DNA from: Thermoanaerobaculia bacterium
GTDB taxonomy: Bacteria; Acidobacteriota; Thermoanaerobaculia; Multivoradales; Multivoraceae
NCBI GenBank assembly: GCA_965116145.1
Contig: OZ220482.1
Coordinates: forward strand, 1,729,450-1,793,449
Direction of reading: 5' to 3'
Length of the DNA stretch: 64,000 nt
The position numbers were made by a program, and so were the translations under genes. Shown here in pieces: positions 12,343 through 34,130 of this stretch. A model generated the notes under the pieces. That model did not search any database and had not been told where the DNA came from. It worked only from the letters and a program-made list of their open reading frames with translations. Numbering within the stretch: the first letter of the stretch is position 1; each line of letters starts with the position of its first letter.

Positions 12343-12445
12343 AGGTCGAAGACAAGAGCCAATAGCGGCCTGCCCTACGGAACTAGACCCTCGTCGCGCA
12401 CAAAGAAAGAGGGAAGAAGCCAACGACAAAAAGGAGAGCGTAAAC

Positions 12446-14218: not shown

Positions 14219-14285
14219 GCTGGAGCAGCGCATCAACTGCGTTGTTGTCGATGCGCGCTCAGGCCCATTGCGGCGGGGAACGAGA

Positions 14286-17200
14286 TCAACTGTCCTCGCC
14301 CTCATCGTCGTCGTCATCATCATCGTCGTCGAAGAGTCCGGGGGTCTCCGGCCGGTCGGGGGTGCGGGCGAGGCGGGTGATCTCCGGCCAGCTCTGGACC
14401 AGGCTGTTGTAGGACAGGGCTTCGGCGGCGCGCTTCTTTCGTTCGCATACCGTGTAGAGCCGATAGCAGAGTTCGCGGGCTGTCTCCGCCCGGCTTCCGA
14501 GGCGCTTCACCAGGTCGGCGGCGCCCTGTTCGCCGCCCGATTCGAGCACCCGAATCAGGTGATGGACTGCCTCCCAGGCAGTGAGGCGCGTGTCCGTCTT
14601 CGGGTCCCAGTCCTCGGGTAGTTCCTTCGGCGCCAGCAGGCGGACCCGGCCGCCTCGGGACTCGACGACCCCTGCCTCGACCATGCCCTCTACGCTGGTG
14701 TTCTTGGCCTTGGACAGGGTCTCCGCGATGCCGAAGTCGCCCTCGTCGAAGCCGTTCTGCTCGAACCAGGCCAGCGCCCAGCGGCTGTCCGCGTCGAAGT
14801 CGCCTTCCTGTTCAGCCAGCACCTCGTCGAGGATCTCGTTGATGAGCGCCAGAGCCTCACGGACAGACATCGCGTTGCCGGCGGCGTCAAGCACCCTCTC
14901 GTGGCGCGTGTATGCCGCCATGCCCGGTCCGATCGCGGCCTGGGCGAGGTCCACCGGCGCGACGTTGCCGGACTGCAGCAGCCGCAGCGCCTTCGGCAGC
15001 TCGGCGCGCAGCGCGGTCAGGAACTCGCGGCGGGTGGCCACCGGAGCGTCGGCAGGCCGGCGGCGGCAGACGAGGACGATGCTGGAGGCCAGGGCGTTCG
15101 TCCTCATGCCGACCATCCGGTTGCTGAGCTCGGTGCGCATCGGCCAGGTGCCGGTGATCGCGAAACCGGACCGGATCGCGGCGTCCAGGAAGGTCTCCCA
15201 ACCGGTGCTCGCCACCCCCGTGTCGCCCTTGCGTTCGGACTGCTTGAAGGCGTAGTAGATCGTGACCGGAAAGCCGGGATGCGCCTGTTCGGCAAGCCGC
15301 TGCAGCGCGTCCGTCATGCCCGAGAGAAAGAAGGTCTCTGCGGCGGCCTTGTTGCCGTGCCGGTAGGGCGTCGCCACCAGTTCCTCGGCCTTCGGCACGG
15401 CCATCGTTGCGAACAGATCCGGAAACACCGGTCTCAGCGAGCGGCGTAACCAGACGTAGAAGAAGTCCGACAGGTCCGCGTAGCCGATGTTGTCGTAGTA
15501 CGGCGGATCGGTGGAGATGACCTTGTCGATGCTCAGGTTCTGAGTGCCCGCATCCGCAAGAGCCGCACTGCCGGCAGTGCTTGTCTGTGATTGGGCCAGA
15601 ATCTTGACGATCCAGCCGCACATGGAAATCCAATTGCCGCTGGACGTGCTCAGGGGATTCGCTTCGGCGTGGTCCCATGTCATCGGGATCGCTTGCCGCG
15701 CAAACGTGTTTCGTATCTTCGTGAACCCGATATCCCAAGTGCAGATCGAGGAGGAACGATCGGCCAAACGGTCCACCGCGAGGCCCAGATACAGGCCGAC
15801 CGCCTCGGCATACGCCGTCGCCCCCACACCGCCGTCGCGGAGCGGCCGTCCGTCGTCGGCGAGACCTGCCGCCGCGGCGTCCTGGCGGACCCGCTCCATC
15901 GCCTCGGCGACGAGATCGGAGAAGGTCGTCAGCGCAACGAGCTGGCGGGAGGTGAACAGGTCACACCAGCGGAGCATCCCGTACTCCTGCACGCGAAAGC
16001 CGAGTGCCCGCTGCGGCAGGTCGGTCTCGGGTGCCCACTCGGGGCTTGCGTTGATCGCCGTGAGCTCCTGGCTGGCCGACGCGTCAAGGTAGAGGCGTTG
16101 CCTGTCTCCTTCCGCGACAACTGCGAGGAGACGAGAACCCAGTCGGCCTGCCTTGCCCTCCGCTCGCAGGTAGTCAAACGGCATCGGTGACCCGGACATC
16201 AGGCACAGAAAGGGGCTGCCGCTGCCGCCGGACTTCGTCCCCCGCTTCGTCGCCTCGGGATCCGGCGGCGGTCCGACCCTTACCTCGAACCGGTACCCCC
16301 GCCCCTCGATCACCGGCTCGACGTACGCCTCCTTGCCCTTCTTCGTCGACAGCATGAACGTCGACGCCAGGGGCACCTCCACCTCCGCAAACGCCGGATT
16401 CGGACTCCGCACCGTCCGCGCCCACAGCCACGCGATCACCGTCAGCTTCCGGCCAGCGTACGGCGCCAGGTCCGGACGAGCCCGCGCCATCGCAGGAGCC
16501 ACCTCCACCTGCGGGTACAGATGGCCGATCCGACGCTTCACCTCGTCCCGCATCCAGCGGCCGTAGCGCCGCACATCTTCCGCCAGCCCCTGCGCACCGC
16601 GCCAGTCCCCGGCCAGCAACCGGGACTCACCCCGGGCCGCCGGATGCACCGGCGCCTTCCCGGCAAACTTCGGCGGCACCTCGATCATCGCCTTGTTGAT
16701 CAGCACCGCCACCGGGTTCAGGTCACTGGCATGGGACAGAAGCCCCAGACGCTGCGCTTCCAGCGGCAACGCCCCGCCCCCCGCAAACGGATCATGAAAC
16801 CCCGGCAACACCCCCGGATCGAACAGCTCCGCCTGCCCGCGGATGACCCGTGTTCGCCGCACAGGTCCGCTCCCAGCTCGCCCTGATCTCGGCCCGAGCC
16901 CGATCGAGCAACGCCTCGTTGGACGTGTTCTCCCACAGCACCAACTCCTCCAGCAACCTGAACAGACGCTCTCGCTCCTGCGCCGCCGCGATCTCCGCCA
17001 GCTCCCGCCTGTCGCGGGAGGCGTCCACCTCCGTCTCGCCGCCCGCACCCGGCTTCTCGCCCGCCGCCCGGCGCAGCCCGAGCGCACGCTCGGCCGCTCG
17101 TCGTCTGGCCGGATCCGACAGCAGCACATCGACGTACTCCTGGGGATCGTCGAGCATCTGGGCGAAGATCACCGCCCGCGCCACGGCGAGCGGCTTGCGC

Positions 17201-17322
17201 GACCACCACAGGTGAAGGGTCGAGGGGTGGCCATGGCGAATGGACTTCTCCCGAGCGCCGGCGACGTTGATCGCATCGAGTGGCAACGCCACCTCGATGA
17301 GCTTCCTGCGATGGGGGTTCAC
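14286..17322 (-). pseudogene. DUF1156-type DNA methyltransferase, copy 1 (full length but frameshifted near codon 165)
   Basis: N-terminus [19 protein letters not shown]...[17 protein letters not shown] is the DUF1156 hallmark. A 1-bp insertion relative to copy 2 (caggcggagc vs caggggagc, at about 16832) splits the reading frame into ORFs 16792..17322 and 14286..17129. The C-terminus is intact and ends in a poly-Asp tail. Confidence 0.8.
14911..16827. repeat. inverted repeat, left arm (identical 1.92-kb core of the methylase paralogs)
   Basis: The encoded protein segment ELFDPG...AAYTRH is 100% identical to the copy-2 segment. The DNA is identical by direct comparison of sampled regions. Duplicated antisense ORFs (e.g. 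15591..16190 and 32520..33119) confirm the repeat. Confidence 0.85.
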
Positions 17323-17437
17323 TTGCGACTCCGTTGCAGTTTCAGGTGTGTCCGGCGCGCGAACGAGGCCCGACCTCGGGATGCGGAGGGCCGTCCTCCC
17401 TTCGGCTGGCGCCTACCCCGGCCGTCGGACCGGACAG

Positions 17438-17632
17438 TCACGACCGCAGGTCAAACCGTCCATCCGCTGTCGTTCCGCCGGCGTCCCAGTCGAAAAAGCG
17501 CTCGCGATAGTCCTTCAGGCTGACCAGGGCGGCCGCCGGAGTCTGCCGCCGACAGATCAGAACCGGCCCACCGCCTCGTTCAAGCTGGTCCAGGACGCTG
17601 CCAAGCGACCGGCGGAGATCAACGGTGTTCAT
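17438..17632 (-). other. Phd/YefM-like antitoxin-type module (64 aa), in frame with integrase 1
   Basis: MNTVDLRRSLGSVLDQLERGGGPVLICRRQTPAAALVSLKDYRERF resembles Phd/YefM antitoxins. It has its own ATG at 17632. No partner toxin lies downstream. Confidence 0.45.
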
Positions 17633-18655
17633 TATCTTCCTGGATTCGGTCACCCTTTCAGCCGGGCTGCCAGGTGTCAACCCTGACGAGGCCCCTGACG
17701 AGGTCGCCGACAGCGTCGTTGGCATGGACCCTGACGTGTCGTCAGAAGGCGCGTCCGAGGCGCCGTGGCCCTCCGTTGCCGGCGCCGCCAGAAGGGCGGC
17801 CATGGCGCCTCCGATCCGCTCGGCCGCCGCTTCGGTGTCCTTGTCGCTGACGTGAGCGTAGCGGAGCGTCATTCGTGCCTGCGAATGGCCGAGCAGCCGC
17901 GAGACCACGGGCAGGGGCACGGACCGCATCACCGCGTGGCTGGCGAACGTGTGCCGGAGATCGTGCAGGCGTGCGTCGGCGATTCCAGCCTCGCGGCGCA
18001 CCTTCCGCCACAGCGACAGCTCATCGGAGCGGCTCGTGGAAGGATCGGTCAGCGAGGGAAACACGTACGGACTTCTGGTTCGGGGCTGACGGGCAAGGAC
18101 GGCGCGTGCCGGCGCGTTCAGGACGACGGTGCGCGGCCCGGTCTTGGTGTCGTTCAGGCGCAGCGAATCCCCGTCGACCTCCGACCAGCGGAGGCGCACG
18201 ATTTCGCCCTTCCGACAGCCTGTCCACAGCAGCAGCCGGATGATCTCCGCCTGCTGCCTGCCCGAGCCGCGGCCGCGGTGAGCGTCCAGAGCGGCGTGCA
18301 GACGTTCGACTTCCGCCCTGGACAGAAAGCGGGTCGGCTTCGGGCGCCGGTTGCGGTGAATGCCGCGGGTGGGATTGGTGGTGATGTGACCGCATGCCAT
18401 CGCGTGGTGGAAGATCTGGCGCAGCACGTCCAGTGTGCGGTTCGCGCCGGCCGGGGCGGACCGGCTGTAGCGGTCGAACCAGGCATTCACCGCCTTGCGG
18501 TCGATTCGGTCGAGCCGCCGCGGCCCGAACGTTGGCAACAACTGGGTGCGCAAGGCGCTGTCCATCCGCTTGCGGGTCGACGGCTTGCAGCGGGCATAGC
18601 TCACTGTCCTCCAGACGCCGGAAACGAACTTCCTGAACGTGGGGGGCCGAGTCAT
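17438..18655 (-). CDS. tyrosine recombinase/integrase 1, read in-frame into a C-terminal Phd/YefM-like module
   Basis: Catalytic region HDLRHTFASH...LGHSQARMTLRYAHV. Start at MTRPPTF (ATG at 18655) overlaps the integrase 2 stop (ATGA). There is no stop before the MNTVDL... module at 17632. Confidence 0.75.
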   Translation of the reverse strand: MTRPPTFRKFVSGVWRTVSYARCKPSTRKRMDSALRTQLLPTFGPRRLDRIDRKAVNAWFDRYSRSAPAGANRTLDVLRQIFHHAMACGHITTNPTRGIHRNRRPKPTRFLSRAEVERLHAALDAHRGRGSGRQQAEIIRLLLWTGCRKGEIVRLRWSEVDGDSLRLNDTKTGPRTVVLNAPARAVLARQPRTRSPYVFPSLTDPSTSRSDELSLWRKVRREAGIADARLHDLRHTFASHAVMRSVPLPVVSRLLGHSQARMTLRYAHVSDKDTEAAAERIGGAMAALLAAPATEGHGASDAPSDDTSGSMPTTLSATSSGASSGLTPGSPAERVTESRKIMNTVDLRRSLGSVLDQLERGGGPVLICRRQTPAAALVSLKDYRERFFDWDAGGTTADGRFDLRS

Positions 18656-19554
18656 CGCCCGGCGTCCAGCGCCGCCCCGACCGCCTCGGCGGCGCCCCGC
18701 ACGAAGGGGTCGGCAACGTGCACGTACTTCAGCGTCGTGGACGGGTCGCGGTGGCCCAGCAGGCGTCCGATCGTCAGCACCGTCTCGCCCTGGCGAAGTG
18801 CGAAACTGGCGTAGGTGTGGCGCAGATCGTGCAGTCGGACGCCGGGAATTCCTGCGGCCGCGCGCAGGGTCCGCCAGCACCTGTAGAGCGTTTCGGTCGG
18901 CATCGGCCCCGGCTTCTCGGCCGCCGGGAACACCCAGCGCCCGTTGCGCGGTATGCGGTCGAGCGCGGCCCGCGCCGCGGTCGAGAGCCAGACGGTGCGC
19001 GGCCCCGACTTGCTGTCGCGCAGGAACAGGTGACCCTCCCGATACTCGGACCACTTCAGTGTGCGGATCTCGCTCTGACGGCAGCCGGTGAGCAACAGCA
19101 GCCGGACGACGGCGACCGCGCAAGGTGCGACGGGTTCGTGGCCAGCCAGCGCGGCGCCCAGCCTGTGGACCTCCGCGGGCGTGAGGTGCCGCTCCCGGCT
19201 CCGCTCGGCGTACCGGTGAATCCCCACGCAGGGGTTGCTGTTCTCCCGGCGGTAGCCGTAGAGCTCGGCCTGCGCCATGATCACCGAGAGGACCGGAAGC
19301 GACCTGTTGGCGGCGGCCGGCGTGGCGCGCAGCGAAGCGAACCAGCTCGACACGTCGTCCCGCGTGATCCCGCCGATTTGCCGGCCGTTGAACCAGGGAC
19401 CGATCTGGTTTCGAAGATAGGACCGGTTGACGTGAAGGGTGCGTGGCTTCCAGCGGCGTCCGTAGCGGCGGAACACCTCTTCTGTCACGACTTCGAACCG
19501 TCTGCCGGCACCGCCATTGGAGGCGTTGGTCTCGGGTACTCGGCTTGCTGGCAT
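18652..19554 (-). CDS. tyrosine recombinase/integrase 2
   Basis: HDLRHTYASF...LGHRDPSTTLKYVHV. SD sequence GAGAGGAA before the ATG at 19554. Translationally coupled to integrase 1. Confidence 0.8.
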   Translation of the reverse strand: MPASRVPETNASNGGAGRRFEVVTEEVFRRYGRRWKPRTLHVNRSYLRNQIGPWFNGRQIGGITRDDVSSWFASLRATPAAANRSLPVLSVIMAQAELYGYRRENSNPCVGIHRYAERSRERHLTPAEVHRLGAALAGHEPVAPCAVAVVRLLLLTGCRQSEIRTLKWSEYREGHLFLRDSKSGPRTVWLSTAARAALDRIPRNGRWVFPAAEKPGPMPTETLYRCWRTLRAAAGIPGVRLHDLRHTYASFALRQGETVLTIGRLLGHRDPSTTLKYVHVADPFVRGAAEAVGAALDAGR

Positions 19555-20000
19555 CTGCTGTTCCTCTCTGGAGGGTCGGCACGGCTGTTCGGAGGGCCGA
19601 ACGCGGCTTCGGCGCGTCCCCGTCTCGTGCCGCACCCTCGGTATCGGCGGCCGCGCTACGGGGGCATGGCGGCAGCGCGGCGGCTACGCCTCGGGCTCGC
19701 GCGCTTGCCGGATCTGCGGCGCCGGTGGACTGTTAGAGTGCCCGAAGACTGGCGCCCCTGGACCGGAGTCCGGCCATTCGTACATTCGAGTGCGTCGCAT
19801 CGGCGCTCCCGCGTTCGGGGGCCGCGGCGAGAGGTCGGCGGTCGGCTGCAGAGGCCGGCCTGCCAGCCTGCAGTTCTCGGCGACTCGCCGCCGGATCGCG
19901 GCCGGGGCACCGGGCGGCGAGCCTCCTGCCAAGCGTCCTCCTGAGCGCTGCCGCCGTCTCCGTTGGGCCGTCACCGGGCACCGCGCAGCCGGAGTCCGGC

Positions 20001-23000
20001 ATGGACGAGCCGGCCTGGTGCCGTGTCTTCCCGAGCGTTCCGGGCTCAGAGAGTCCCGCGATGTCGGCGGACATCGTTGGCGCGAGGGCGCCAGAGGCAC
20101 AAGCGCTGCATTCGGCACAGACGGTCGGCAGCACCGGGACGGGGAAAACCAGCGAGATCACGATCTACTTCTTCTATACGCAGCAATTCGAGGATCAGAT
20201 GGCGTCCGGCCTGTCGTACGGCAGCGGCGCCGCCGCCAGGAAGGCCGGCGTGACCGGCGAGGTCGAGAAATCCGTCGCTCTGACCAACGAGGCCTTTCGC
20301 AACAGTGGGGTCAACGCCAGGCTGGTCATGGTGGGCATCGAGAAGAGCCTGGACCTGCCCGACAGCGTCTGGAAGGCGCGGGACTGGATCCGCGACAGCG
20401 CCTACGCCAAGGCCGTCCGCAACGCCCGGGCCGCCGATCTGGTCTACGCGCTGATCGATGACGACAACCGGAGCTACGGCGGCTACGCGTGCCGGCACTA
20501 CCCGCAGCGGTATGGCTGGCAGAACGACTTCAATCGCGACGACTGCTTCATGGGCATGATCAACTCCCTGAGAGACCACCACCGTGGCCGGATCGCGAAC
20601 TGGCGGACGATCCTGCGGCACGAGGTGGGCCACAACCTGGGCCTTCAGCACCCACCGGAGGAAATCGGCGGCGGGCCGCGAGATTCCTATCCCGGTGGCC
20701 GCGGCTACCGGAGCCCGTCGTCCTGGCCCGGCCGCGCGTACGGCACGGTGATGTCCCAGTTGACGGTCGTGTCCCAGCGCGTGTCGCGCTTCTCTTCGTC
20801 GACGGAGCGGTGGAGGGACCTGGTCATTGGCAAGAAGGGGATCCACGAGGCGTCGTCGGTTCTCAGGCAGACCGTCGGCTACGTCAGCGAGTACCGGTTC
20901 GACGACCTGGCGGTGCCGAAGGTGACCTGGACGCGCGAGTCGCTGGTTGCCGTGGTCCGGGTCGCCGCCAGTACCGCGTTCGGTCAGGAGGTGGTGTTCA
21001 ACGTGGCCTACGGCGGCGCCGCCGACACTGCGGTCGGCGCCAGCAACCCGGCCCGAGCCGACTACGACAACGACGCCGTGACCTCGGTCACGTTCTCGCC
21101 CACCGACACGTCGAAGACCTTCTTGATTCCGATCACCGACGACAAGGAAGACGAGGACGGCGAGACGTTCACGGTGACCCTCGTGCCGGCAGAGGCCCTG
21201 CCGGAAGGGTTCTCGTTCGGCAACATGAGCACGACCGTGAGCATCGCGGACGATGACCATTCGCCGCTGCTGCGGCCGATCGACGCCGTCCAGGTGCGAG
21301 TCGGAGAGACGGTCGACGTCAGGGCGCATGCGACGGACTGGGACGGCGACGCCATCTCCTACCGCTGGACCCGCAAGGCCGGCGAGACGGTGCCGGCCCT
21401 CCCCGCCGGTACGCGGCAGAACCGCGCCCGGCTCAGGTTCACCCCTCCCGGACCCGGCGTCTACACGATGACGGTGAGAGCCTCGGACCGCAACGGCAAC
21501 GTCGACCGCGAGGAGGTGGTCATCACGGTCGGCACGGTCGCCGGGGGCAACTCCCCGCCGGTGCTGGCGCCGCTGACGGACCGGACGGTGAAGGTCGGCC
21601 AGACGGTGGACATCACTGCGGCGGCGACGGACGCGGACAACGACGCGATCGGCTACGCCTGGACGCGCGATGCGAGCGAGACATCGCCGGCAATTCCGGG
21701 CGGCACGGCGCTGGACCAGGCACGACTGACGTTCCGGGCATCGGCGGTGGGCACGTACACGATGACGGTGACGGCATCGGACGGTAACGGCAACTCGGAC
21801 ACCGAGGAGGTCGTGGTCACGGTGGGCAGTGCCGACACGGTGTCGTTGTCGTCGTCGCTGTCGGTGGCCGAGTCTGCGGGCAGCGCGACGGTGAGGGTGA
21901 CGGTGGCGGCGGCGCTGGGCAGGTCGGTGACCTTCACCTTGACGTACGGCGGGTCGGCGACGGGCGCTGCGAGTCCGGGGGACGGCGACGACTACGACAA
22001 CGATGCGGTGACGCTGGTGACGTTCGGCCCCGCCGACACGGCGAAGGCGATCGCGATACCGATCAGGGACGACGGTCTCGACGAGGACAGCGAGACGATC
22101 GAGGTGACGATCGCGGTGGCGGACGGCGGCACACTGCCGGCGGGCTTCGAGCTGGGCGCCACGACGACAACGGTGACGATCACGGACGACGACGAGTCCC
22201 CCGTGTTGTCGCGGCTGGCGGACCGGACAGTGAAGGTCGGCCAGACGGTGGACATCACGGCCGTGGCGACAGACGGCGACAACGACACGATCGGCTACGC
22301 CTGGACGCGCGATGCGAGAGAGACATCGCCGGCAATTCCGGGCGGCACGGCGCTGGACCAGGCACGACTGACGTTCACGGCATCGGCGGTGGGCACGTAC
22401 ACGATGACGGTGACGGCATCGGACGGCAACGGCAACTCGGACACCGAGGAGGTCGTGGTCACTGTGAGGCCGGCAGACCCGGTGGGCGATGACTCCGGCG
22501 GAGGCGACGGTTCGCCGGGCGGCAACCCGGGTAGCAACGACGGCAACGACGGCGGTGGCACGGGCGGGAATGACGGCTCCAGCGGCGGCGGTCCCGGCCC
22601 ACCTGACGACCCGGGCGGCAACGATGGCGGCAACGGCGCCCCGGGCGGGAACAACGGCAGCGACGGTGGTCCTGCCGGGGCTGACAACGGTCCAGGCGGA
22701 AACAGCGGCGGCCCGGGCTTTGGTGGCGGCTCGGGTGGCGGCGGCACGAACGACGATGACGGTGCGGCCGACGACGGTGATGACGACGACGATCGCGGTG
22801 GCCCAGGCGGTAACGATGACGATTCCGGTGACGGCGACTGGTCAGGCGATGCGGGCGGGGCCGTGCGCGCCTCCTTCACCCTGGACGCTCCCTGCGCCGA
22901 TGGCCTCTGCCGCGCCCGGACCGGCGTCCGCGTGTCGTTCCGGGACACGAGCAGCGGCGCCGTGACCTCGCGGACCTGGAACCTCGGGGACGGCGCGACA

Positions 23001-24229: not shown

Positions 24230-27200
24230 GTGAAGAGCGCCCCCCTCATCCCGTGGCCAGCGAGATGCAGTTGCGTTCTCGGTTGTCTGCTGGCTGCCGG
24301 TCTGCTGGCGGCGCCTGCTGGATCGCAGCAGCCGGCCGACCACCGGGGACATGGTTGGTGCACCGTCGGTTCCGAGCCGGAGCGCTCCGGGCTCGTTGAC
24401 GTGGCCAGCAGGTCACAAGGACGCGGCAGCCTGCTCCTTCCTCCGGTGGAACTTGTTGCGGAGCAGACCGCAACAGGTTCCTCCGAGATCACGATCCTGT
24501 TCTTCTACACGCAGGAATTCCTGGATGCGGCACGGGGCGCCGATGCCGCCGCCAGGCGGAAGACGATCCGAACGCAGATCAGGAAATCGGTCGACCTTGC
24601 AAACGAGGCGCTGCGCAACAGCGACATCGACGCGACGGTGAGAACGGTGGGGCTCGAGAAGAACCTCGATCTGCCCAACGGCAGGGACGCGGCAATCGAC
24701 TGGATCAGGAACAACAAGTTCGCGAAGAAGCGAAGGAACCAGAAGGCTGCCGACCTAGTGTACGGGCTGGTGCACTCCCGCGAGTCTTTCGGATACGCCT
24801 GTCTTCCCGATCGTGAGGAAGGAAGACGGTGGCATTCCGAGATGTGCCACTACGGGCTTCTCATGTCGGAACGCGGGGTGTACGGCGCAGAGCGCTGGCC
24901 GACCCTTCTCCGACACGAGATCGGCCACAACCTGGGGATAATGCACCAGCTCGGCGCTCCGGTCTACAAGCGGTACAAGGGCCTTGCGGCCGGGGCCCGC
25001 GCCTACCTGAGCCCGCGGGGCAGCTCCAGGTGGGGGACGATCATGACCTCGTGGGCTTCCGACTACCTCGAAGTGCCGCGTTACTCCACGTCCAGGGCGC
25101 GTTGGCAAGGACGGGTGATCGGGCACAGGGGTGTCCATGAAGCGTCTTCGGTCATGCGGCAGACCGTGAAGTACGTGAGCACGTACCGTTCCGCCGCGGC
25201 AGCGGGCGGCGTCCGTACCGTGCCGAAGGTCTCGCTGCCGACGAGTCTCTCGGTGGAGGAAGGGGACGACGTCGAGGTCGAGGTCACGCTCGACCTCGCG
25301 TTCGGTGAGCCGGTGACGTTCAACGTGATCTACGGGGGCAGCGCAAGCGGCGCCAGCAGTCCGGCGGACGGCGACTACGACAACGACGAGGTGACCTCCG
25401 TCACGTTCCTGACGATCGAAACGTCGAAGACGATCAGGATCCCGATCACCGACGACGACGAGGACGAGAGCGACGAGACGATCACCGTGACGATTGTTCC
25501 ATCCGGAACTCTGCCGACCGGTTACGGCCTGGGCAACCTGAAGACAACGGTGACGATCACGGACAACGACGGACTGGTCCTGGGCGACCTCGCCGATGTG
25601 ACGGTCCGGCCGGGCGACACGGTGGACATCACCGCCCAGGCGACGGACGACGACAACGACCCGATCAGCTACGCCTGGACGCGCAAGCCCGGCGAGACGT
25701 CGCCGGCGATTCCGCAGGGTACGGCCCTGGACCGGGCGCGCCTGACGTTCACGGCATCGGCCGTGGGCACGTACACCATGACGGTGACGGCTTCCGACAG
25801 CGCCGGTGACAAGGCCACCGAGAACGTGACGATCACGGTGAGAGCCGCGCCGCCCGCCCCGCCGACGGGCCTGACCGCGACAGCGGCCAGCGGGCAGGTC
25901 ACGCTGGCGTGGACGGAACCGACCGATGAGGGCATCACCGGCTACAAGATGCGCTACGGCAGGACGAGCGCACGAGACAGCGCTGCCTGGGCCTCCATCT
26001 CCGGTTCCGGCGCCGGCACGACAAGCCACACGGTAGCGGGGCTCGACAACGGCTCCGAGTACAGCTTCCAGGTGCGCGCGGCGAATGCGGACGGCGACGG
26101 CGACGCCACGGACTGGGTGAAGGCGACGCCGATCGCAGTCTCGCTGCGCATCGCGGATGTGACGGCGGCCGAGGGCGGGACGTTCGCCTTCGTGGTGACG
26201 GCGGATCCTGTGCCGGCGGCGGATGTGAGCTTCAGCTACACGGTGACGGCGGAGTCCGGTGACACTGCGACGGCCGATACAGATTTCACCGCGGTGACAA
26301 GGGCGAAGGCGGTGATCGCGACCGGCGAGACCAGCACGTCGATCACGGTCGCGGTGACGGACGACGGTCTCGACGAGCCGGACGAGACGTTCACGGTGAC
26401 GCTATCGGCGCCGTCCGACGGAGCGACGATCGGGGCGGCCACGGCGACGGGCACGATCACGGACGACGATGCCTCACCGGTGCTGTCGCTGATCGCGGAC
26501 CGGACGGTGAAGGTCGGCCAGGCGGTGACCATCACGGCGGTGGCGACGGACGGCGACAACGACCCGATCGGCTACGCCTGGACGCGCGCTGCCAGCGAAA
26601 CGCTGCCGCCGCTGCCGGGCGGCACGGCGCTGGACCGGGCGAGGCTGACGTTCACGGCGCCGGCCGTGGGCACGTACACGATGACGGTGACGGCGAACGA
26701 CGGCAACGGCAATGAAGACACCGAGGAGGTGACGATCACGGTAGGCACCGCGGACACGGTGTCGTTGCCGTCGTCGCTGTCGGTGACGGAGGGGACGGAC
26801 AGCAGCGCGGCGTTGCGGATCACGGCGTCCGCGGCGCTCGGGGAGTCGGTGACGCTGAGCGTGACGTACAGCGACACGACGGCGACGGGCGCTGCCGATC
26901 CTGCAGCGGGCGACTACGGCAGCAACGCGGTGAGATCGGTGCCGTTCGGCCCAGCCGACACGGTTCAGGACATCGCGATTCCGATCACGGACGACGATCT
27001 GGACGAGCCCGCCGAGACCTTCACGGTGACGATCTCGGTCTCGGGTGAGCTGCCCGAGGGCTTCATCCTGGGCAACGCGGCGACGACGGTGACGATCGTG
27101 GACGACGACGAGTCACCGGTGCTGTCGCCGATCACGGACCTGGCGGTCACGGTCGGCCAGGTCGTGGACATCACGGCGGCGGCGAGGGACGGCGACAACG

Positions 27201-28885
27201 ATCCGATCGCCTACGCCTGGGCACGCAAGGCCGACGAGCCGTCGCCTGCGCTGCCGGGCGGCACAGCTCTGAACCAGGCGCGTCTGACGTTCACGACGGC
27301 GGCGCCGGGCACGTACACGATGACGGTGACGGCATCGGACGGCAACGGCAACGCGGACACCGAGGAGGTCGTCGTCACGGTGAGGCAGGCAAACCCGGTT
27401 GGCGACGGTTCCGGCGGAGGCGGTAACGGTCCGCCGGTCAATCCGGGCGGCAATGGCGGGGGCAGCAGCGGCGGTGGCGGTCCGGGCGGAAACGACGGTT
27501 CCAGCGGCGGCGGGTCCGGCCCACCTGGCGACCCGGGCGGGAATGGCGGCGGCAACGGTGGTCCTGCCGGGGGTGGAAGCGGTTCAGGTGGAAACGGCGG
27601 CGCCACGGGCGCTGGCAGCGGTGGCGCTGGCGGCGGCACGAACGATGACAGTGACAATGACGATGACGACGACGATGATGATGACGACCGCGCTGGCCCA
27701 GGCGGCAACGGCGCCGGCGGTTCCGGCGGCGGTTCAGGCGGTGCCGGCGAGGCCGTGCGCGCCTCCTTCACCCTGGACGCTCCCTGCGCCGATGGCCTCT
27801 GCCGTGCGCGGACCGGCGTCCCCCTGTCGTTCCTGGACAGAAGCAGCGGGGCGGTGACCTCGCGGACCTGGAACCTCGGGGACGGCACGACGTCCCGCAG
27901 CCGTTCGCTGGAGCACGCCTGGTCCGTGCCCGGGTTCTACACGGTGTCGCTGACCGTCAGCGGTCAGGGTCCTTCCTCGACCGTATCCCGCAAGGTGCTG
28001 GTCGAGGCGGCCGACCCGGTCGGCGCCTGCGCGGCGGACGGCGAGACGCTGTGCCTTCAGGACTCCCGGTTCTCGGTGAAGATGGACTGGTGGACCGAGC
28101 ACGGTGCGGACGGCGAGCGTGGGGCGGGCAAGGTGGTCCACGAGGGGACGAACGACTCGGGGCTGTTCTGGTTCTTCTCGGCGGTGAACTGGGAGCTGCT
28201 GGTCAAGGTGCTCGACGGCTGCTCGGTCAACGGCCGCATGTGGGTGTACGGCGCCTCGGCGACGACCCTGGGCTATTCACTCAAGGTGACGGACACGGTG
28301 ACGGGCGCGGTGCAGGAGTACCGGAACGAACCGGGCAGGCAGGCTGAAGCGTTCACCGACAGCGCGGCCTTCCCCGGAAGCTGCACCGCGCCCGCGGCGG
28401 CGACTGCGGCCGCGGACGCCAGCGCCTTGCCACTGGTGGCCGAGCCGTTGCCCGAACCGGCGCCGGCGGTGCACCATCTCGCCGTCGCCACTGTCTCGGT
28501 CGCCGCGCCGGCGGAGGACGACGGCTGCACCGACACGGCAACCGCGATGTGCCTCCAGAAGGGCCGCTACGAGGTGACTGTTACGTGGTCGAACCTTGAC
28601 GGCAGGAGCGGCAAAGGCCGCACGGCCGGTCCGCGGACGGACGATTCCGGCCTGTTCCACCTCTTCTCGTCGGCGAACTGGGAGATCCTGGTCAAGGTGC
28701 TCGACGGCTGCAGCTTCAACGATCACCACTGGGTGTTCGCCGCCTCCGCCACGGACGTCGGCTTCGACCTGCGGGTCCGCGACACGGCGACCGGCCGGAC
28801 CCGGCAGTACACCAAGCAGCCAGGCAAGCCGGCCCGTGCGCTGGTCGACGTGTCCGCGTTCCCGGACGCGTGCCGGCAGCAGTAG
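24230..28885 (+). CDS. giant metzincin-type zinc metalloprotease with Calx-beta, Ig-like, FN3, PKD domains and duplicated C-terminal domain (paralog 2)
   Basis: Signal peptide MKSAPLIPWPARCSCVLGCLLAAGLLAAPAGS. HEIGHNLGIMHQ is present. FN3 (LTATAASGQVTLAWTEP...YSFQVRAANADGDGD) is present. A poly-Asp DDDDDDDDDD run is present. The C-terminal 375 aa are about 94% identical to paralog 1. Confidence 0.85.
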   Translation: MKSAPLIPWPARCSCVLGCLLAAGLLAAPAGSQQPADHRGHGWCTVGSEPERSGLVDVASRSQGRGSLLLPPVELVAEQTATGSSEITILFFYTQEFLDAARGADAAARRKTIRTQIRKSVDLANEALRNSDIDATVRTVGLEKNLDLPNGRDAAIDWIRNNKFAKKRRNQKAADLVYGLVHSRESFGYACLPDREEGRRWHSEMCHYGLLMSERGVYGAERWPTLLRHEIGHNLGIMHQLGAPVYKRYKGLAAGARAYLSPRGSSRWGTIMTSWASDYLEVPRYSTSRARWQGRVIGHRGVHEASSVMRQTVKYVSTYRSAAAAGGVRTVPKVSLPTSLSVEEGDDVEVEVTLDLAFGEPVTFNVIYGGSASGASSPADGDYDNDEVTSVTFLTIETSKTIRIPITDDDEDESDETITVTIVPSGTLPTGYGLGNLKTTVTITDNDGLVLGDLADVTVRPGDTVDITAQATDDDNDPISYAWTRKPGETSPAIPQGTALDRARLTFTASAVGTYTMTVTASDSAGDKATENVTITVRAAPPAPPTGLTATAASGQVTLAWTEPTDEGITGYKMRYGRTSARDSAAWASISGSGAGTTSHTVAGLDNGSEYSFQVRAANADGDGDATDWVKATPIAVSLRIADVTAAEGGTFAFVVTADPVPAADVSFSYTVTAESGDTATADTDFTAVTRAKAVIATGETSTSITVAVTDDGLDEPDETFTVTLSAPSDGATIGAATATGTITDDDASPVLSLIADRTVKVGQAVTITAVATDGDNDPIGYAWTRAASETLPPLPGGTALDRARLTFTAPAVGTYTMTVTANDGNGNEDTEEVTITVGTADTVSLPSSLSVTEGTDSSAALRITASAALGESVTLSVTYSDTTATGAADPAAGDYGSNAVRSVPFGPADTVQDIAIPITDDDLDEPAETFTVTISVSGELPEGFILGNAATTVTIVDDDESPVLSPITDLAVTVGQVVDITAAARDGDNDPIAYAWARKADEPSPALPGGTALNQARLTFTTAAPGTYTMTVTASDGNGNADTEEVVVTVRQANPVGDGSGGGGNGPPVNPGGNGGGSSGGGGPGGNDGSSGGGSGPPGDPGGNGGGNGGPAGGGSGSGGNGGATGAGSGGAGGGTNDDSDNDDDDDDDDDDRAGPGGNGAGGSGGGSGGAGEAVRASFTLDAPCADGLCRARTGVPLSFLDRSSGAVTSRTWNLGDGTTSRSRSLEHAWSVPGFYTVSLTVSGQGPSSTVSRKVLVEAADPVGACAADGETLCLQDSRFSVKMDWWTEHGADGERGAGKVVHEGTNDSGLFWFFSAVNWELLVKVLDGCSVNGRMWVYGASATTLGYSLKVTDTVTGAVQEYRNEPGRQAEAFTDSAAFPGSCTAPAAATAAADASALPLVAEPLPEPAPAVHHLAVATVSVAAPAEDDGCTDTATAMCLQKGRYEVTVTWSNLDGRSGKGRTAGPRTDDSGLFHLFSSANWEILVKVLDGCSFNDHHWVFAASATDVGFDLRVRDTATGRTRQYTKQPGKPARALVDVSAFPDACRQQ
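27752..28885. repeat. direct repeat copy B: near-identical 1.14-kb 3' end of the metalloprotease genes
   Basis: Pairs with 22860..23999. Confidence 0.8.
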
Positions 28886-28971
28886 CTCAGCCGGACGGCC
28901 ACTCCCTGACCTCGACTGCCGCCATCGGGTAGTCCTTCACGTCGGCAGTGGCCGCGGCAATCGCCCCGGGA

Positions 28972-29220: not shown

Positions 29221-29394
29221 GGATCCAAGCTACCACTCCCCGTTCGGTCTCTCGACCCGGCGCCAGCGACGGCGTGGAAGACCGGTCCACCAGAGGACGA
29301 ATCCCCGGGCACGGGGTGCTATCTTCCGTCGCGTGACCGTCAACTTGGACGATCCGTCGCCCTGCCCGCTGCCAGCCGTTGGCGAGCATGGTCG

Positions 29395-30948
29395 ATGACA
29401 GGCCAGCAGCCCATCCGGCCTCGACCGGGCGACTATCGGATCGCGGTCAAGAACTTCGGGCCGATCGTGACGGCCGAAGTCGACGTGCGGCCGCTGACGA
29501 TCTTCGTGGGCCCCAGCAACACGGGCAAGTCCTACCTGGCCGTTCTGCTCTACGTGCTGCACCGCTGTCTCGGCCGTGGGGTTCCTTACGGCTATGGCGC
29601 TGCCGGGTTCCCGGGACGCCGGGGCCGGTCCCTTGACTTCTCGGACACTCCGGCCCGGCAAGCGGTCCACCAGAGCCTGGACGAGTGGATTGCAGCAGTC
29701 CTGAGATCGGAAGCGCCGCAGGACCTGCCGGCCGATGTCGCCGCGCACCTGCATTCCGCACTCCAGGCAGCGGAGGGACTCGAAGGCAGTGTCACGTATG
29801 AGCTGAAACGCTGCTTCGGTGTCGAGGATGTCGGGGTCCTGGTTCGAAGGGCGGGGAAGGCCGCGCTGACGCACGTCTGCCTGGGCGTGCCTTGGCGGGC
29901 CGATTCCGAGGCGCGCTACGACATCGAACTCGGCTCGGAAGTGTCTCGGCTGACCGGCCGGTTTCCTCGTGTGACTTCGCTGCAGCACGACGCCACCGTC
30001 GGCGCCGCCGATTGGATCCAGCACCTGTTGCGGAGCACGCCCGCCCGCCAGGAGACTTCGTTCGCCCTTGAGAGGGTGCTCCGCTTCCTGATGGACAGGG
30101 TGGCAGCGTCCGTTCTGGGACCGTTGTACCGCAACGCATACTACCTGCCGGCGGATCGCACCGGGGTCATGCACAGTCACCAGGTTGTGGTCAGCACGAT
30201 CGTGCAGAGCGCATCCACGACCGGTCTGCGGCCTTCTCCCGACGTTCCGATGCTCTCCGGGGTGCTGACCGACTTCCTGGACCAGTTGATCGGGATCGGC
30301 GATCGCACTCGAAGACGCCGGAGCCGGTCCGGTCCTCGCGGCGGCAGAGTCCGTGCCGGCAACCTGGCCGACCTGCTGGAAGAGAACGTTCTCGAGGGAG
30401 CGGTCGTCACGGAGCGGAGCGAGACCGGCTATCCGACGTTCGCCTATCGACCGCGCGGATGGCGGGACGACATCGCACTGATGCGGGCCTCCTCCATGGT
30501 CTCGGAGCTCGCCCCCGTCGTGTTGTACCTGAGATACGTCGTGCAACCGGGAGACCTGCTGATCATCGAGGAACCGGAGGCCCATCTGCACCCGGCCATG
30601 CAGACCGCGTTCGCCCGAGAGCTGGCGCGGCTGGTTCATGCCGGTGTCCGCGTGGTCATGACCACGCACAGCGAGTGGTTCCTCGAGCAGATCGGCAACC
30701 TGGTCAGGGCTGGCACACTCCCCAGAAAGAAACGAACGAGGATTCCAGGCGCGGAGTTCGCCCTGGATCCCGGGCAGGTGGGCGCCTGGCTCTTCAGACC
30801 CTCCAAACGGCCACGGGGGTCGATCGTTGAAGAGGTCCGGTTCGACCCTGAGTCCGGTCTCTTCCCCACCGACTACGACCAGGTAAGCGAAGCGCTGTAC
30901 AACGAAAGCGCTCTCATGTTCAACAGCTTGCAGGAAGCCGGCCAGTGA
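29395..30948 (+). CDS. AAA_15/AAA_21-type ATPase (OLD/Septu PtuA-like) with C-terminal extension
   Basis: Walker A GPSNTGKSY and Walker B LLIIEEPEAHLHP are present. The roughly 90-aa C-terminal tail resembles the DUF3696-type tails seen on some AAA_21 proteins (uncertain). Confidence 0.75.
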   Translation: MTGQQPIRPRPGDYRIAVKNFGPIVTAEVDVRPLTIFVGPSNTGKSYLAVLLYVLHRCLGRGVPYGYGAAGFPGRRGRSLDFSDTPARQAVHQSLDEWIAAVLRSEAPQDLPADVAAHLHSALQAAEGLEGSVTYELKRCFGVEDVGVLVRRAGKAALTHVCLGVPWRADSEARYDIELGSEVSRLTGRFPRVTSLQHDATVGAADWIQHLLRSTPARQETSFALERVLRFLMDRVAASVLGPLYRNAYYLPADRTGVMHSHQVVVSTIVQSASTTGLRPSPDVPMLSGVLTDFLDQLIGIGDRTRRRRSRSGPRGGRVRAGNLADLLEENVLEGAVVTERSETGYPTFAYRPRGWRDDIALMRASSMVSELAPVVLYLRYVVQPGDLLIIEEPEAHLHPAMQTAFARELARLVHAGVRVVMTTHSEWFLEQIGNLVRAGTLPRKKRTRIPGAEFALDPGQVGAWLFRPSKRPRGSIVEEVRFDPESGLFPTDYDQVSEALYNESALMFNSLQEAGQ

Positions 30949-31415
30949 GCGGGCCGGTGGAGGCGGTCGCCAATGCGGTCCCGCACGAATGTCACACCAG
31001 AAGCTGTCGGAGGCACGGGTGCTCCGTCTCGATGAGCGGGGCGCCGAAGCGCCGTGTGGTCATCGACCTCGACTGCGAGACGCTCTGCCTCGATGCGCAG
31101 GCACACTGTGACCTGCTGTTCGTCGGGGAAGACGAGGACGTGAGTTGGGTGGCGCCGGTCGAACTCAAGAGCGGGCATGTCAACGGCACGGCGACTGCCG
31201 CGCAGCTCCAGGGCGGCGCCAGTGTCGCAGAGGCGTGGCTTGCGAACGTTGGAGCGTTCCGGTTCGTTCCGATCCTCGTCCACGGCGGGGGAATCCACAG
31301 GGCCGAGCAGAAAAAACTGCGCCGAGCCAGGATCACGTTGCGCGGGCATTCCAGGCAGCCCGTGCTGATCCGCTGCGGCGCCCCGATCACGGCGGCGTTC
31401 ACGATGGGTACCTGA
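30945..31415 (+). CDS. small Cys/His-rich protein with putative PD-(D/E)xK nuclease core, translationally coupled to the ATPase
   Basis: GTG start overlaps the ATPase stop (GTGA). N-terminal HECHTRSCRRHGC cluster. VVIDLD...CDLLFVGEDEDVSWVAPVELK fits the D...ExK spacing. Confidence 0.5.
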   Translation: MSGPVEAVANAVPHECHTRSCRRHGCSVSMSGAPKRRVVIDLDCETLCLDAQAHCDLLFVGEDEDVSWVAPVELKSGHVNGTATAAQLQGGASVAEAWLANVGAFRFVPILVHGGGIHRAEQKKLRRARITLRGHSRQPVLIRCGAPITAAFTMGT

Positions 31416-31505
31416 CGTGACGGTCGATTCGTGCGGCGGACGCTTGCAGGCCAAGACGGCCGGAGCACCCGGCGAGCGGTCTGTCCAGGACACGCTCCAG
31501 ACCTG

Positions 31506-34130
31506 ATGGGCAAGGCTCTGATGGGCGAGCCCAGGAAACTGATCGAGGTGGCGTTGCCGCTCGATGCGATCAACGCTGCGTCGGCGCGGGAGAAGTCGAT
31601 TCGCCACGGGCATCCCTCCACCTTGCACCTGTGGTGGGCTCGGCGGCCGCTGGCGGCGGCGCGGGCGGTGATCTTCGCGCAGATGGTGGACGATCCGGGG
31701 TCCTGGATCGACGACCCCGAGGCGGCGGCGCAGGAGCGGAAACGCCTGTTTGACTTGCTCGAGAAGTTGGTGCTGTGGGAGAACACGTCCAACGAGGCGT
31801 TGCTCGATCTTGCTCGGGCCGAGATCAGGGCGAGCTGGGAGCGGACGTGTGCGGCGAACACGGGTCATCCGCGGGCAGGGGAGCTGTTCGATCCGGGGGT
31901 GTTGCCGGGGTTTCATGATCCGTTTGCGGGGGGCGGGGCGTTGCCGCTGGAAGCGCAGCGTCTGGGGCTTCTGTCCCATGCCAGTGACCTGAACCCGGTG
32001 GCGGTGCTGATCAACAAGGCGATGATCGAGGTGCCGCCGAAGTTTGCCGGGAAGGCGCCGGTGCATCCGGCGGCCCGGGGTGAGTCCCGGTTGCTGGCCG
32101 GGGACTGGCGCGGTGCGCAGGGGCTGGCGGAAGATGTGCGGCGCTACGGCCGCTGGATGCGGGACGAGGTGAAGCGTCGGATCGGCCATCTGTACCCGCA
32201 GGTGGAGGTGGCTCCTGCGATGGCGCGGGCTCGTCCGGACCTGGCGCCGTACGCTGGCCGGAAGCTGACGGTGATCGCGTGGCTGTGGGCGCGGACGGTG
32301 CGGAGTCCGAATCCGGCGTTTGCGGAGGTGGAGGTGCCCCTGGCGTCGACGTTCATGCTGTCGACGAAGAAGGGCAAGGAGGCGTACGTCGAGCCGGTGA
32401 TCGAGGGGCGGGGGTACCGGTTCGAGGTAAGGGTCGGACCGCCGCCGGATCCCGAGGCGACGAAGCGGGGGACGAAGTCCGGCGGCAGCGGCAGCCCCTT
32501 TCTGTGCCTGATGTCCGGGTCACCGATGCCGTTTGACTACCTGCGAGCGGAGGGCAAGGCAGGCCGACTGGGTTCTCGTCTCCTCGCAGTTGTCGCGGAA
32601 GGAGACAGGCAACGCCTCTACCTTGACGCGTCGGCCAGCCAGGAGCTCACGGCGATCAACGCAAGCCCCGAGTGGGCACCCGAGACCGACCTGCCGCAGC
32701 GGGCACTCGGCTTTCGCGTGCAGGAGTACGGGATGCTCCGCTGGTGTGACCTGTTCACCTCCCGCCAGCTCGTTGCGCTGACGACCTTCTCCGATCTCGT
32801 CGCCGAGGCGATGGAGCGGGTCCGCCAGGACGCCGCGGCGGCAGGTCTCGCCGACGACGGACGGCCGCTCCGCGACGGCGGTGTGGGGGCGACGGCGTAT
32901 GCCGAGGCGGTCGGCCTGTATCTGGGCCTCGCGGTGGACCGTTTGGCCGATCGTTCCTCCTCGATCTGCACTTGGGATATCGGGTTCACGAAGATACGAA
33001 ACACGTTTGCGCGGCAAGCGATCCCGATGACATGGGACCACGCCGAAGCGAATCCCCTGAGCACGTCCAGCGGCAATTGGATTTCCATGTGCGGCTGGAT
33101 CGTCAAGATTCTGGCCCAATCACAGACAAGCACTGCCGGCAGTGCGGCTCTTGCGGATGCGGGCACTCAGAACCTGAGCATCGACAAGGTCATCTCCACC
33201 GATCCGCCGTACTACGACAACATCGGCTACGCGGACCTGTCGGACTTCTTCTACGTCTGGTTACGCCGCTCGCTGAGACCGGTGTTTCCGGATCTGTTCG
33301 CAACGATGGCCGTGCCGAAGGCCGAGGAACTGGTGGCGACGCCCTACCGGCACGGCAACAAGGCCGCCGCAGAGACCTTCTTTCTCTCGGGCATGACGGA
33401 CGCGCTGCAGCGGCTTGCCGAACAGGCGCATCCCGGCTTTCCGGTCACGATCTACTACGCCTTCAAGCAGTCCGAACGCAAGGGCGACACGGGGGTGGCG
33501 AGCACCGGTTGGGAGACCTTCCTGGACGCCGCGATCCGGTCCGGTTTCGCGATCACCGGCACCTGGCCGATGCGCACCGAGCTCAGCAACCGGATGGTCG
33601 GCATGAGGACGAACGCCCTGGCCTCCAGCATCGTCCTCGTCTGCCGCCGCCGGCCTGCCGACGCTCCGGTGGCCACCCGCCGCGAGTTCCTGACCGCGCT
33701 GCGCGCCGAGCTGCCGAAGGCGCTGCGGCTGCTGCAGTCCGGCAACGTCGCGCCGGTGGACCTCGCCCAGGCCGCGATCGGACCGGGCATGGCGGCATAC
33801 ACGCGCCACGGGCCGTTGTCGGGCCCGGCTCGAAGTTCTCGCCGATCTCCGCGATGTACGCGGATCCAGCCGCTGCAATGGGGCCAGAGCGTCTTTCCCG
33901 GCGCTGTGCCGCCGGCGAGTTCCTGCACGGACTCACGCGCGGCGCGAAGACAGCGCTGCAGGCAAGGACACCGAGGCTGCCGGCACCCGGTCGCGGCGTC
34001 GCGGGTGATCGCCGGAGCAGAACAGCGTCGCGGCGTCCGGTCGGCGTTGCTTCGGCGGCCTCGGTGTCGGACCACCGGACCGGCGGCGCGTGTGCGCACC
34101 GGAGCTGAGCAGGCGCACGCCGGATCATGA
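31506..34130 (+). pseudogene. DUF1156-type DNA methyltransferase, copy 2 (intact divergent N-terminus and identical core, but C-terminally truncated after codon ...AAYTRH)
   Basis: [43 protein letters not shown]. Identity to copy 1 ends at 33811, after which the frame reads non-homologous low-complexity sequence up to 34130. Confidence 0.75.
31884..33811. repeat. inverted repeat, right arm (identical core of methylase copy 2)
   Basis: See left arm 14911..16827. Boundaries are defined by the first mismatches on both sides. Confidence 0.85.

Follow-up and report, generated by a model that had tools for sequence, protein, structure and literature searches.

Programmed inversions have been documented for hsdS, BREX PglX, DISARM DrmMI and Type IIG enzymes (PMC9881135). 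The helicase-methylase-ATPase (Hma) defence system was defined by Payne et al. 2021 (PMC8565338), is reported in 26 phyla, and was renamed DUF499-centred BREX-related (BR) type 1 in a survey that places the type-1 BR form in 2446 taxa (PMC12839542). Hma thus ranks among the most widespread of the newer defence systems. Its curation in Payne 2024 (bioRxiv 10.1101/2024.01.29.577857) retained only loci with a single copy of each hma gene on one strand, and the searched text of these three surveys mentions neither recombinases nor inverted copies nor phase variation. A literature search, with subscription journals outside its scope, likewise found nothing on DUF499 together with a recombinase and inverted repeats, or on an Hma system with inversion. 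Here, we describe the Hma locus in a 64,000-nt stretch of the genome of a Thermoanaerobaculia bacterium (GCA_965116145.1, contig OZ220482.1, positions 1,729,450 to 1,793,449; hereafter the window), in which two inverted copies of the methylase gene hmaB enclose two tyrosine recombinases, Int1 and Int2. A first-pass annotation, made from the sequence by itself, had read this arrangement as an inversion switch that would assemble an intact methylase. Our analysis indicates that hmaB is likely built here as an invertible module of the Hma locus, consisting of two heads, a shared tail and flipping linked to Int1 and Int2. It is probably a DNA-flipping switch, apparently undescribed for Hma defence, and distant bacteria carry the same layout and the same recombinase pair.

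An Hma locus with two inverted hmaB heads and one tail

Both methylase copies of the window were identified as HmaB by PADLOC (1302 and 1256 bits) and carry the Pfam domain DUF1156. HmaB is accompanied by the HmaA helicase and the HmaC ATPase encoded beside it, and with all three components present the locus is an Hma defence system, of which hmaA is the effector component. No match to the BREX or DISARM gene sets was found among the scanned open reading frames (ORFs) of the window, the partners of the methylase being an SNF2 helicase and a DUF499 ATPase. The locus departs from the rule of one copy per gene on the same strand followed by Payne 2024, as its two hmaB copies lie on opposite strands and the tail-bearing one is convergent with hmaA and hmaC.

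A search of the window for repeats of at least 40 nt revealed a perfect inverted repeat, the arms of which (14900-16830 and 31880-33810) are each 1931 nt long, 100% complementary and separated by 15,049 nt, in agreement with the identical, inverted methylase cores reported at first pass. The N-terminal flanks of the arms are still homologous, at 92% (16832-16989 and 31722-31879) and then at 83% (17144-17308 and 31532-31696); they had correctly been described as related and divergent, whereas the indel between the "long" head A, which carries the insert, and the "short" head B measures 43 aa by protein alignment and not 58 aa. On the C-terminal side of the arms, homology breaks off sharply at 14899/33811. 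The first mismatch outside the perfect core is a single additional C at position 16831 of copy 1 (GGGCAGGCGGAGC in place of GGGCAGG-GGAGC in copy 2, by pairwise base alignment), and the following ones are single substitutions 23 and ~100 nt beyond. Three-frame translation revealed that this base causes the +1 frameshift that had been reported in N-terminal region A, splitting copy 1 into ORFs 16792-17322 and 14286-17129 and separating the N-terminal DUF1156 domain, in the former, from the remainder of the protein, in the latter.

Copy 2 is an open head of 768 codons that ends at the head-tail junction. Its C-terminal truncation had been recognized earlier, while its extent, given as roughly 150 codons, is in fact 204 codons. 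The sequence that follows (33811-34130) has GC fractions of 0.73/0.75/0.71 by codon position, that is, no periodicity, compared with 0.67/0.52/0.84 in the core and a coding pattern of 0.72/0.44/0.84 in the hmaB tail (14286-14899); its translation is rich in Arg, Pro, Ser and Ala. This region is non-coding read-through from copy 2 into the spacer before a thiolase-like gene (34127-35674). Inversion in silico joins the N-terminal part of head B, the core and the tail into a protein of 972 aa. Alignments with family members 960-1010 aa long cover 98% of this chimera, and its identity to the HmaB family is 67-74% over 98% of the query (best non-self match, 74%). The prediction that this junction would restore a full-length gene downstream of the AAA_15 cassette is therefore borne out in silico.

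The module recurs with its recombinase pair in distant bacteria

We scanned one genome per species with an HmaB alignment and searched the best 80 loci, which do not include the window genome, with the window proteins. The commonest order is helicase, methylase and ATPase on a single strand; hmaC homologues adjoin hmaB in most of the 80 loci, and the helicase adjoining hmaB in relatives is 50-80% identical to the hmaA of the window. A second, inverted hmaB copy was found in 8/80 loci (L004, L016, L022, L025, L029, L031, L033 and L042), and orthologues of Int1 and Int2 (60-73% identity) occur in exactly the same eight; the other 72 have neither feature (Fisher p=3e-11). Among the hallmarks of a shufflon-type locus, inverted repeats inside the gene and an inverted partial copy are thus present in the window itself, and a conserved recombinase association is seen across the family (8/8 against 0/72). 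Seven of the eight loci belong to Acidobacteriota (Vicinamibacteria, Thermoanaerobaculia, Bryobacterales and unclassified) and one to Longimicrobiales. The Int1-Int2 pair lies between the heads in 7/8 and beside them in L042. In four loci (L004, L016, L029 and L033), the partner copy spans residues ~10-768/771, which is the truncation point of copy 2 in the window.

Int1 homologues picked from a protein search lay between divergent hmaB heads in 3/3 cases, where small cassettes (AAA_15 with DUF3226, HSDR_N, MNT/HepT and PIN/Phd) sit between the recombinases and the heads. Metagenome loci with abutting Int1 and Int2 genes (Int1 59-68% identical) contain hmaB heads in 7/7 cases and place the recombinases between two inverted heads in 5/7; in L093 and L094, the same sequence on two contigs, the pair lies between hmaC and a short head fragment. 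At least 17 distant loci carry the same module, made up of orthologues of Int1 and Int2, a pair of inverted hmaB heads and, in most cases, a single tail, and the recombinases sit between the heads in all of them except two. The layout of the window mirrors that of L025: the helicase and ATPase genes converge with the tail-bearing copy, and Int2, Int1 and the partner head come after it. The distance between heads is 2-5.5 kb in the relatives, so that the large invertible segment proposed at first pass holds for the window (15 kb) and is not a trait of the family. At 90% identity, each of the window proteins tested is a singleton, with no close relative in the protein collection. Exact look-ups of the two hmaB products gave no contig on record, an exact 36-mer from the hmaB tail had no match in the metagenome contigs, and these searches yielded no same-species sequence.

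More distant integrase pairs (group B; 58-62% identity, genes separated by 290 nt, arm-binding domain present) were considered as module members and rejected, as they have no hmaB. They are found on metagenome contigs (L095-L120), carry Arm-DNA-bind_3 on the first gene, and look like ordinary integrative-element integrases; no inverted repeats were found in 6/7 of the loci searched, L106 having a second, inverted recombinase pair.

Several related loci have other arrangements. L020 and L073 carry two hmaB genes in direct orientation and without recombinases. In L001, L010 and L052, a short N-terminal hmaB fragment precedes embedded genes (UvrD_C_2 and DUF2290 in L001), which would fit an entry of cassettes through recombination in the conserved 5' end of hmaB. 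L083 contains a 5.6-kb, 100% identical inverted repeat (1-5611 and 13996-19606) that reaches within ~240 nt of the contig end, and L031 a smaller one with a mirrored flank (1476-3593 and 12184-14300). These repeats (98-100% identical) run from mid-hmaB through the tail into kilobases of flanking genes, and are due either to fold-back artefacts of assembly that the module triggered or to genuine inverted duplications of large size.

Probable exchange of divergent heads in relatives

To compare the heads, 18 of them were aligned and their within-locus and between-locus identities were determined in 90-nt bins, with residues numbered as in frameshift-corrected copy 1. The heads are mosaics of three constant blocks and intervening variable blocks (Table 1). 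Constant blocks invariably match best with the partner head of their own locus, reflecting concerted evolution of the repeats, while variable blocks never do, the window excepted. Family-wide entropy peaks at residues ~300-560 of the chimera coincide with the variable blocks and fall between motif I (136-144) and DPPY (566-569), the interval that holds the target-recognition insert (PMC12839542). An uninterrupted reading frame is retained in 9/12 partner heads examined, which argues that they are maintained rather than decaying.

Both orientations exist among the relatives: with the outer flanks collinear, the Int1-Int2 segment is inverted in L004 and L029 with respect to L033. The head downstream of Int2 bears the tail in L004, L016, L022, L029, L085 and the window, and is truncated in L033 and L084. 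In L025, it also bears the tail, yet the partner copy retains most of its own tail. As judged from these sequence comparisons, the module in relatives exchanges divergent heads, and a flip most likely changes the specificity of methylation and defence. The switch proposed at first pass is right in kind and finds strong, independent backing in the recurrent module of distant loci, the concerted evolution of its repeats and the two orientations; the relatives, however, exchange heads instead of assembling a broken gene. The window differs from the eight aligned genome relatives, which have alternative variable cassettes between the repeats: here there are none, the heads being 100% identical through both variable blocks and differing only in the N-terminal ~125-165 codons, with one of the two frameshifted. 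Because the heads are homogenized through the variable blocks, a flip in the window cannot change specificity.

A candidate crossover site at the head-tail junction

In seven lineages, the window and six others, the homology of the partner head ends inside a common interval of ~15 nt, just after ...ATGGC(G/C)GTATACACGCGCTACG. The octamer RYATACAC occurs once per head, at the junction only. The silent third-position A that precedes TAC and completes this octamer is present in 19/28 module heads and in 1/33 non-module hmaB genes (p=4e-8 by copy, 1.6e-6 by locus), and a codon ending in A is a rare choice in these genomes, which have ~85% GC at third codon positions. This bias reflects a constraint on the silent site at the DNA level, and the junction sequence GCGGCATACACGCGCCACG is our candidate recombinase crossover site.

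No solved structure related to HmaB by sequence was found, and two AlphaFold runs yielded models with mean per-residue confidence (pLDDT) of 52.9 and 64.5 and template-modelling scores (pTM) of 0.34-0.35, too low for a fold search. Within the locally confident region of the model (720-950), residue 768 is predicted to lie just after a helix (750-766) and before a beta-hairpin.

Int1 and Int2 form a tandem pair without arm-binding domains

The two tyrosine recombinases noted inside the segment at first pass are confirmed. The stop codon of Int1 overlaps the start of Int2 (ATGA), both genes are co-directional with copy 1, and their products are 43% identical. The catalytic residues of Int1 are invariant in 16 homologues, and the R, K, HxxR, H and Y of Int2 are conserved wherever the alignment of its 17 orthologues reaches them. 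Pfam identified no Arm-DNA-bind domain in either protein, in contrast to the related integrases from loci without hmaB.

These properties are reminiscent of XerC/XerD, since Int1 and Int2 are likewise two paralogous, arm-less and catalytically complete tyrosine recombinases, encoded in tandem. They differ in scoring far under the Xer cut-offs of NCBIfam, in their context (inversion of a defence gene as opposed to dimer resolution) and in the Phd/YefM-like domain of Int2. Together with the junction motif, the tandem overlapping paralogues with full catalytic sets and no arm-binding domain suggest, by analogy, that Int1 and Int2 could act as a heteromer on a simple asymmetric site in the manner of XerC/XerD.

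The fusion of Int2 to Phd/YefM is common to L004, L025, L029, L083 and L084. In the window, the domain (17438-17640) is joined to Int2 by a low-complexity linker, and no toxin gene adjoins it. L085 has a separate Phd gene further downstream, after a first PIN gene, with PIN genes on either side.

Genes carried with the module

The segment between the arms runs from Int2-Int1 through two giant protein genes (8.9 kb) and the AAA_15 cassette to head B (Table 1). Its length of 14-15 kb is due to these cargo genes. Cargo inside the invertible segment is normal for the module family; 8.9 kb of protease genes is not, and no homologue of the giant metzincin proteins was found in any module locus of the relatives. 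The two giant proteins (1332 and 1551 aa) are encoded in tandem and combine a metzincin-like N-terminus with many PKD, Calx-beta, He_PIG and Big_9 repeats, which are 66-96% identical at the DNA level between and within both genes. The AAA_15 ATPase and its 156-aa partner also lie immediately 5' of hmaB in L003 (68% and 56% identity). They had been annotated as an ATPase-nuclease operon (29395-31415); the ATPase half of this assignment stands, while the partner has no recognizable nuclease domain.

A further 2.8 kb of cargo (11651-14323) separates hmaC from the hmaB tail, a gap of just 114 nt in L025. Its outermost small ORFs (11651-11905 and 13979-14323) are paralogous (57% over 28 aa), have weak CCDC90-like matches and are inverted around the DarG-like cargo. 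The 165-aa macro-domain protein covers only the N-terminal half of PADLOC DarG and has a 4-nt overlap with the upstream 233-aa ORF; the two may form a DarTG-like pair, the toxin being unrecognized and the antitoxin short. Searches for tRNA genes, for Rfam families and, in 13.8-20.1 kb, for sigma-70-like promoters gave no match. The flanking chromosome (44393-54074; 69% GC) encodes F420-dependent LLM oxidoreductases, a class III polyhydroxyalkanoate synthase and UDP-glucose dehydrogenase.

Table 1. Features of the Hma locus in the window (nucleotide positions) and blocks of the aligned hmaB heads (residues of frameshift-corrected copy 1)
Feature	Position	Strand	Basis or remark
hmaA, SNF2-family helicase with NOV_C C-terminal domain	4200-7784	+	Pfam SNF2-rel_dom, ResIII, Helicase_C, NOV_C
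hmaC, HEPN_Swt1 and DUF499 ATPase	7977-11462	+	Pfam HEPN_Swt1, DUF499
Small ORF	11651-11905	+	directly after hmaC; paralogue of 13979-14323
Small ORF	11929-12342	+	
233-aa ORF	12633-13334	+	no Pfam, NCBIfam or PADLOC match
DarG-like macro-domain protein	13331-13828	+	Pfam Macro; PADLOC DarG E=5e-74
Small ORF	13979-14323	-	overlaps stop codon of hmaB tail
hmaB tail	14286-14899	-	last 204 codons, C-terminal helix-turn-helix (HTH)-like region; sole copy in window; aligns to family residues 769-972
Left arm, head A, from just before methylase motif I to head-tail junction	14900-16830	-	PADLOC HmaB 1302 bits
Candidate recombinase crossover site GCGGCATACACGCGCCACG	14900-14918; 33792-33810	-; +	head-tail junction; first copy read on minus strand
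Extra C, frameshift in head A	16831	-	pairwise alignment, three-frame translation
N-terminal part of head A, DUF1156, "long" variant	16832-17322	-	Pfam DUF1156; 92-83% nt identity to head B
Int2, tyrosine recombinase with in-frame C-terminal Phd/YefM-like domain	17438-18655	-	Pfam Phage_integrase, Phage_int_M, PhdYeFM_antitox
Int1, tyrosine recombinase, ~300 aa	18652-19554	-	Pfam Phage_integrase
Two paralogous giant secreted metzincin/PKD/Calx-beta proteins	20001-23999; 24230-28885	+	Pfam, NCBIfam, internal repeats
AAA_15 ATPase	29395-30948	+	closest PADLOC family PD-T4-4_A; with its partner, directly upstream of head B
156-aa partner of AAA_15 ATPase	30945-31415	+	two-gene cassette
N-terminal part of head B, DUF1156, "short" variant, frame intact	31506-31879	+	Pfam DUF1156
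Right arm, head B up to junction	31880-33810	+	repeat search; includes candidate crossover site
Non-coding read-through after truncated head B	33811-34130	+	no codon periodicity
5' constant block	residues ~116-335		identity within locus 85-100% (most loci), between loci 58-84%
Mid constant block	residues ~470-500		identity within locus 99-100% (three loci), between loci 68%
3' constant block, ends at junction	residues ~752-810		identity within locus 79-100%, between loci 71-81%
Variable blocks	between constant blocks		identity within locus 32-70%, between loci equally low

Proposed switch and alternative explanations

In the mechanism that we propose, two divergently oriented hmaB heads (~768 codons each, with DUF1156, the methylase core and the target-recognition insert) would compete for a single 204-codon tail, and recombination between the heads would flip the intervening DNA and fuse the other head in frame to the tail. 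The crossover could be site-specific at the junction (GCGGCATACACGCGCCACG), presumably catalysed by Int1 and Int2 and with the cut at or near this motif, or mediated by RecA at any point where the heads share sequence. Perfect inverted repeats of 1.9 kb are efficient RecA substrates, and some inversion is expected regardless of the recombinases. The identity of the window heads, which begins at residue ~126 of the 972-aa chimera (~166 in frameshift-corrected copy 1), lasts up to the junction and gives the 1931-bp perfect repeat, is most simply explained by a gene conversion that ran from the 5' constant block to where homology ends. All that a flip could then exchange would be the N-terminal ~125-165 codons together with the genes upstream. 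As assembled, the locus lacks an intact hmaB because head A is frameshifted and head B is tail-less; the flipped orientation would place an intact 972-aa HmaB behind the AAA_15 cassette. If such flipping is ongoing in this population, the only change it could bring about is from an intact to a broken methylase and back (ON/OFF). The methylase-less state may be tolerated either if HmaB is needed for restriction or if the tail-less head B methylates; a tail-less head that still methylates could possibly also keep the chromosome protected at both specificities while restriction switches. PglX, for comparison, is required for BREX defence.

A fuller reading, which we offer tentatively and with slightly more doubt than confidence, is that a head-swap switch exists in the Hma systems of numerous soil bacteria (Acidobacteriota, one genome of Longimicrobiales and the window host). 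A dedicated heteromeric recombinase pair would act at the junction and determine which 768-residue head, along with its recognition insert and the embedded defence cassette upstream, is joined to the tail, and the switch would here have become an ON/OFF toggle of the whole Hma system that flips 14 kb of cargo, including two giant secreted proteases.

Several observations weigh against the invertible-module reading or narrow it. The two orientations have been seen only between distant relatives, from which we infer inversion in this genome. As the window heads do not differ in either variable block, the module has here lost its presumed purpose, and its inner segment of 14-15 kb exceeds anything seen in the relatives. 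The consensus orientation has no intact methylase though the helicase and ATPase ORFs are intact, which fits decay as well as an OFF phase. The ON/OFF reading depends on one frameshift, which could be a recent lesion or a consensus or assembly error, and it is specific to an atypical, possibly degenerating member of the family. The junction motif of the window is GCATACAC and not the commoner GTATACAC, and as a crossover site it has the standing of a candidate. It was not found in the mid and 5' constant blocks, the homogenization of which is for this reason more likely to stem from homologous exchange.

Decay provides one alternative: the locus may descend from an invertible module and now be a dead Hma system, in which residual inversion is incidental RecA recombination without selected function. 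The homogenized heads, the frameshift that leaves neither copy intact as assembled, the 8.9 kb of unrelated protease genes in the segment and the 2.8-kb insert between hmaC and the tail would all fit a relic, and signs of decay are also found in L022, L025 and L085, the last of which is disrupted by an insertion sequence. We nevertheless regard this as rather unlikely, as Int1, Int2, HmaA, HmaC, head B and the tail keep long intact frames and catalytic residues, the copies must have exchanged sequence very recently to be perfectly identical over 1.9 kb, and a single inversion restores a complete gene. The frameshift also bears on a second alternative, an assembly artefact in whole or in part, in which repeat collapse or polishing would have left an arbitrary segment orientation and an erroneous extra C, the real module being an ordinary one with an intact head A. 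The extra base lies exactly at the edge of the perfect repeat, many of the related loci come from long-read chromosomes of metagenome-assembled genomes, and the L083 repeat near its contig end, in the closest relative by Int1, and the mirrored flank of L031 look like assembly problems. In the window, however, the repeat lies in the interior of a 3.7-Mb contig and has no mirrored flanks, and its outer boundary falls within the same ~15 nt as the biological junction in independent assemblies. A systematic base-calling error is unlikely, given that copy 2 shares more than 20 nt of context on both sides of the indel and yet lacks the extra base, and ~25 kb of neighbouring genes contain no other frameshift. 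An artefact is, on these grounds, quite improbable.

We consider it highly improbable that Int1 and Int2 are the integrases of a mobile element carrying the proteases and the AAA_15 cassette, with the second hmaB as a target duplication and no switch at all. Their 58-62% identity to the paired integrases with an arm-binding domain on metagenome contigs devoid of hmaB, and the foreign-looking cargo of the segment, speak for such an element. Integration, however, yields direct and not inverted repeats, and integration of a circular element was rejected for this reason as the origin of the duplicate hmaB. The segment is bordered by no tRNA gene and, in a search for repeats of at least 40 nt, by no att-like direct repeats, and the direct-repeat families listed in the window lie inside the protease genes or appear chance-like, none bracketing the segment. 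Moreover, the Hma-associated recombinases have no arm-binding domain, and in relatives they usually lie between the heads with cargo no larger than small defence cassettes.

If hmaB is indeed a conserved invertible module, Hma joins the phase-variable defence systems, the insert at residues ~300-560 is indicated as the specificity determinant, and the C-terminal HTH-like tail becomes a separable, shared part of the enzyme. The window would then offer a natural ON/OFF allele for the role of HmaB in restriction as well as modification, and the module would supply a compact system for inversion, with two recombinases and a candidate target site.

Comparison with known phase-variable defence systems

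Phase variation of methylases gives rise to mixed populations whose members vary in phage resistance and genome-wide methylation, and is known for Type I, Type IIG, Type III, BREX and DISARM systems. Among these, hsdS shufflons (SpnD39III with CreX and the hsd loci of Mycoplasma pulmonis) consist of inverted partial copies of a specificity gene with a recombinase between or beside them. As in the Hma module, their constant repeats are homogenized and their variable recognition cassettes diversified; the Hma module differs in its target, a 970-aa methylase rather than a separate specificity subunit, in the swap of the promoter-proximal part and in having a pair of recombinases.

The published Hma systems share the three core genes with the window, as well as embedded cassettes adjoining hmaB (an AAA_15 ABC ATPase with a small partner, and toxin-antitoxin pairs), whereas the window has a duplicated and inverted hmaB that converges with hmaA and hmaC. 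The inversions of pglX in BREX type 1 and drmMI in class 1 DISARM (Milman et al. 2023, PMC9881135; Goldfarb et al. 2015) also involve an N6-adenine methylase, an inverted partial copy and an adjacent tyrosine recombinase; there, too, repeats flank variable target-recognition sequence, and non-functional intermediates lacking the C-terminus occur (PMC9881135). The target in the window is instead HmaB, a DUF1156 protein related to the BREX type 3 methylases, and its heads are identical. Finally, the Hma module has two recombinases in place of one, and swaps whole N-terminal heads, with their own start codon and upstream genes, onto a fixed tail, whereas pglX and drmMI exchange an internal or C-terminal segment.

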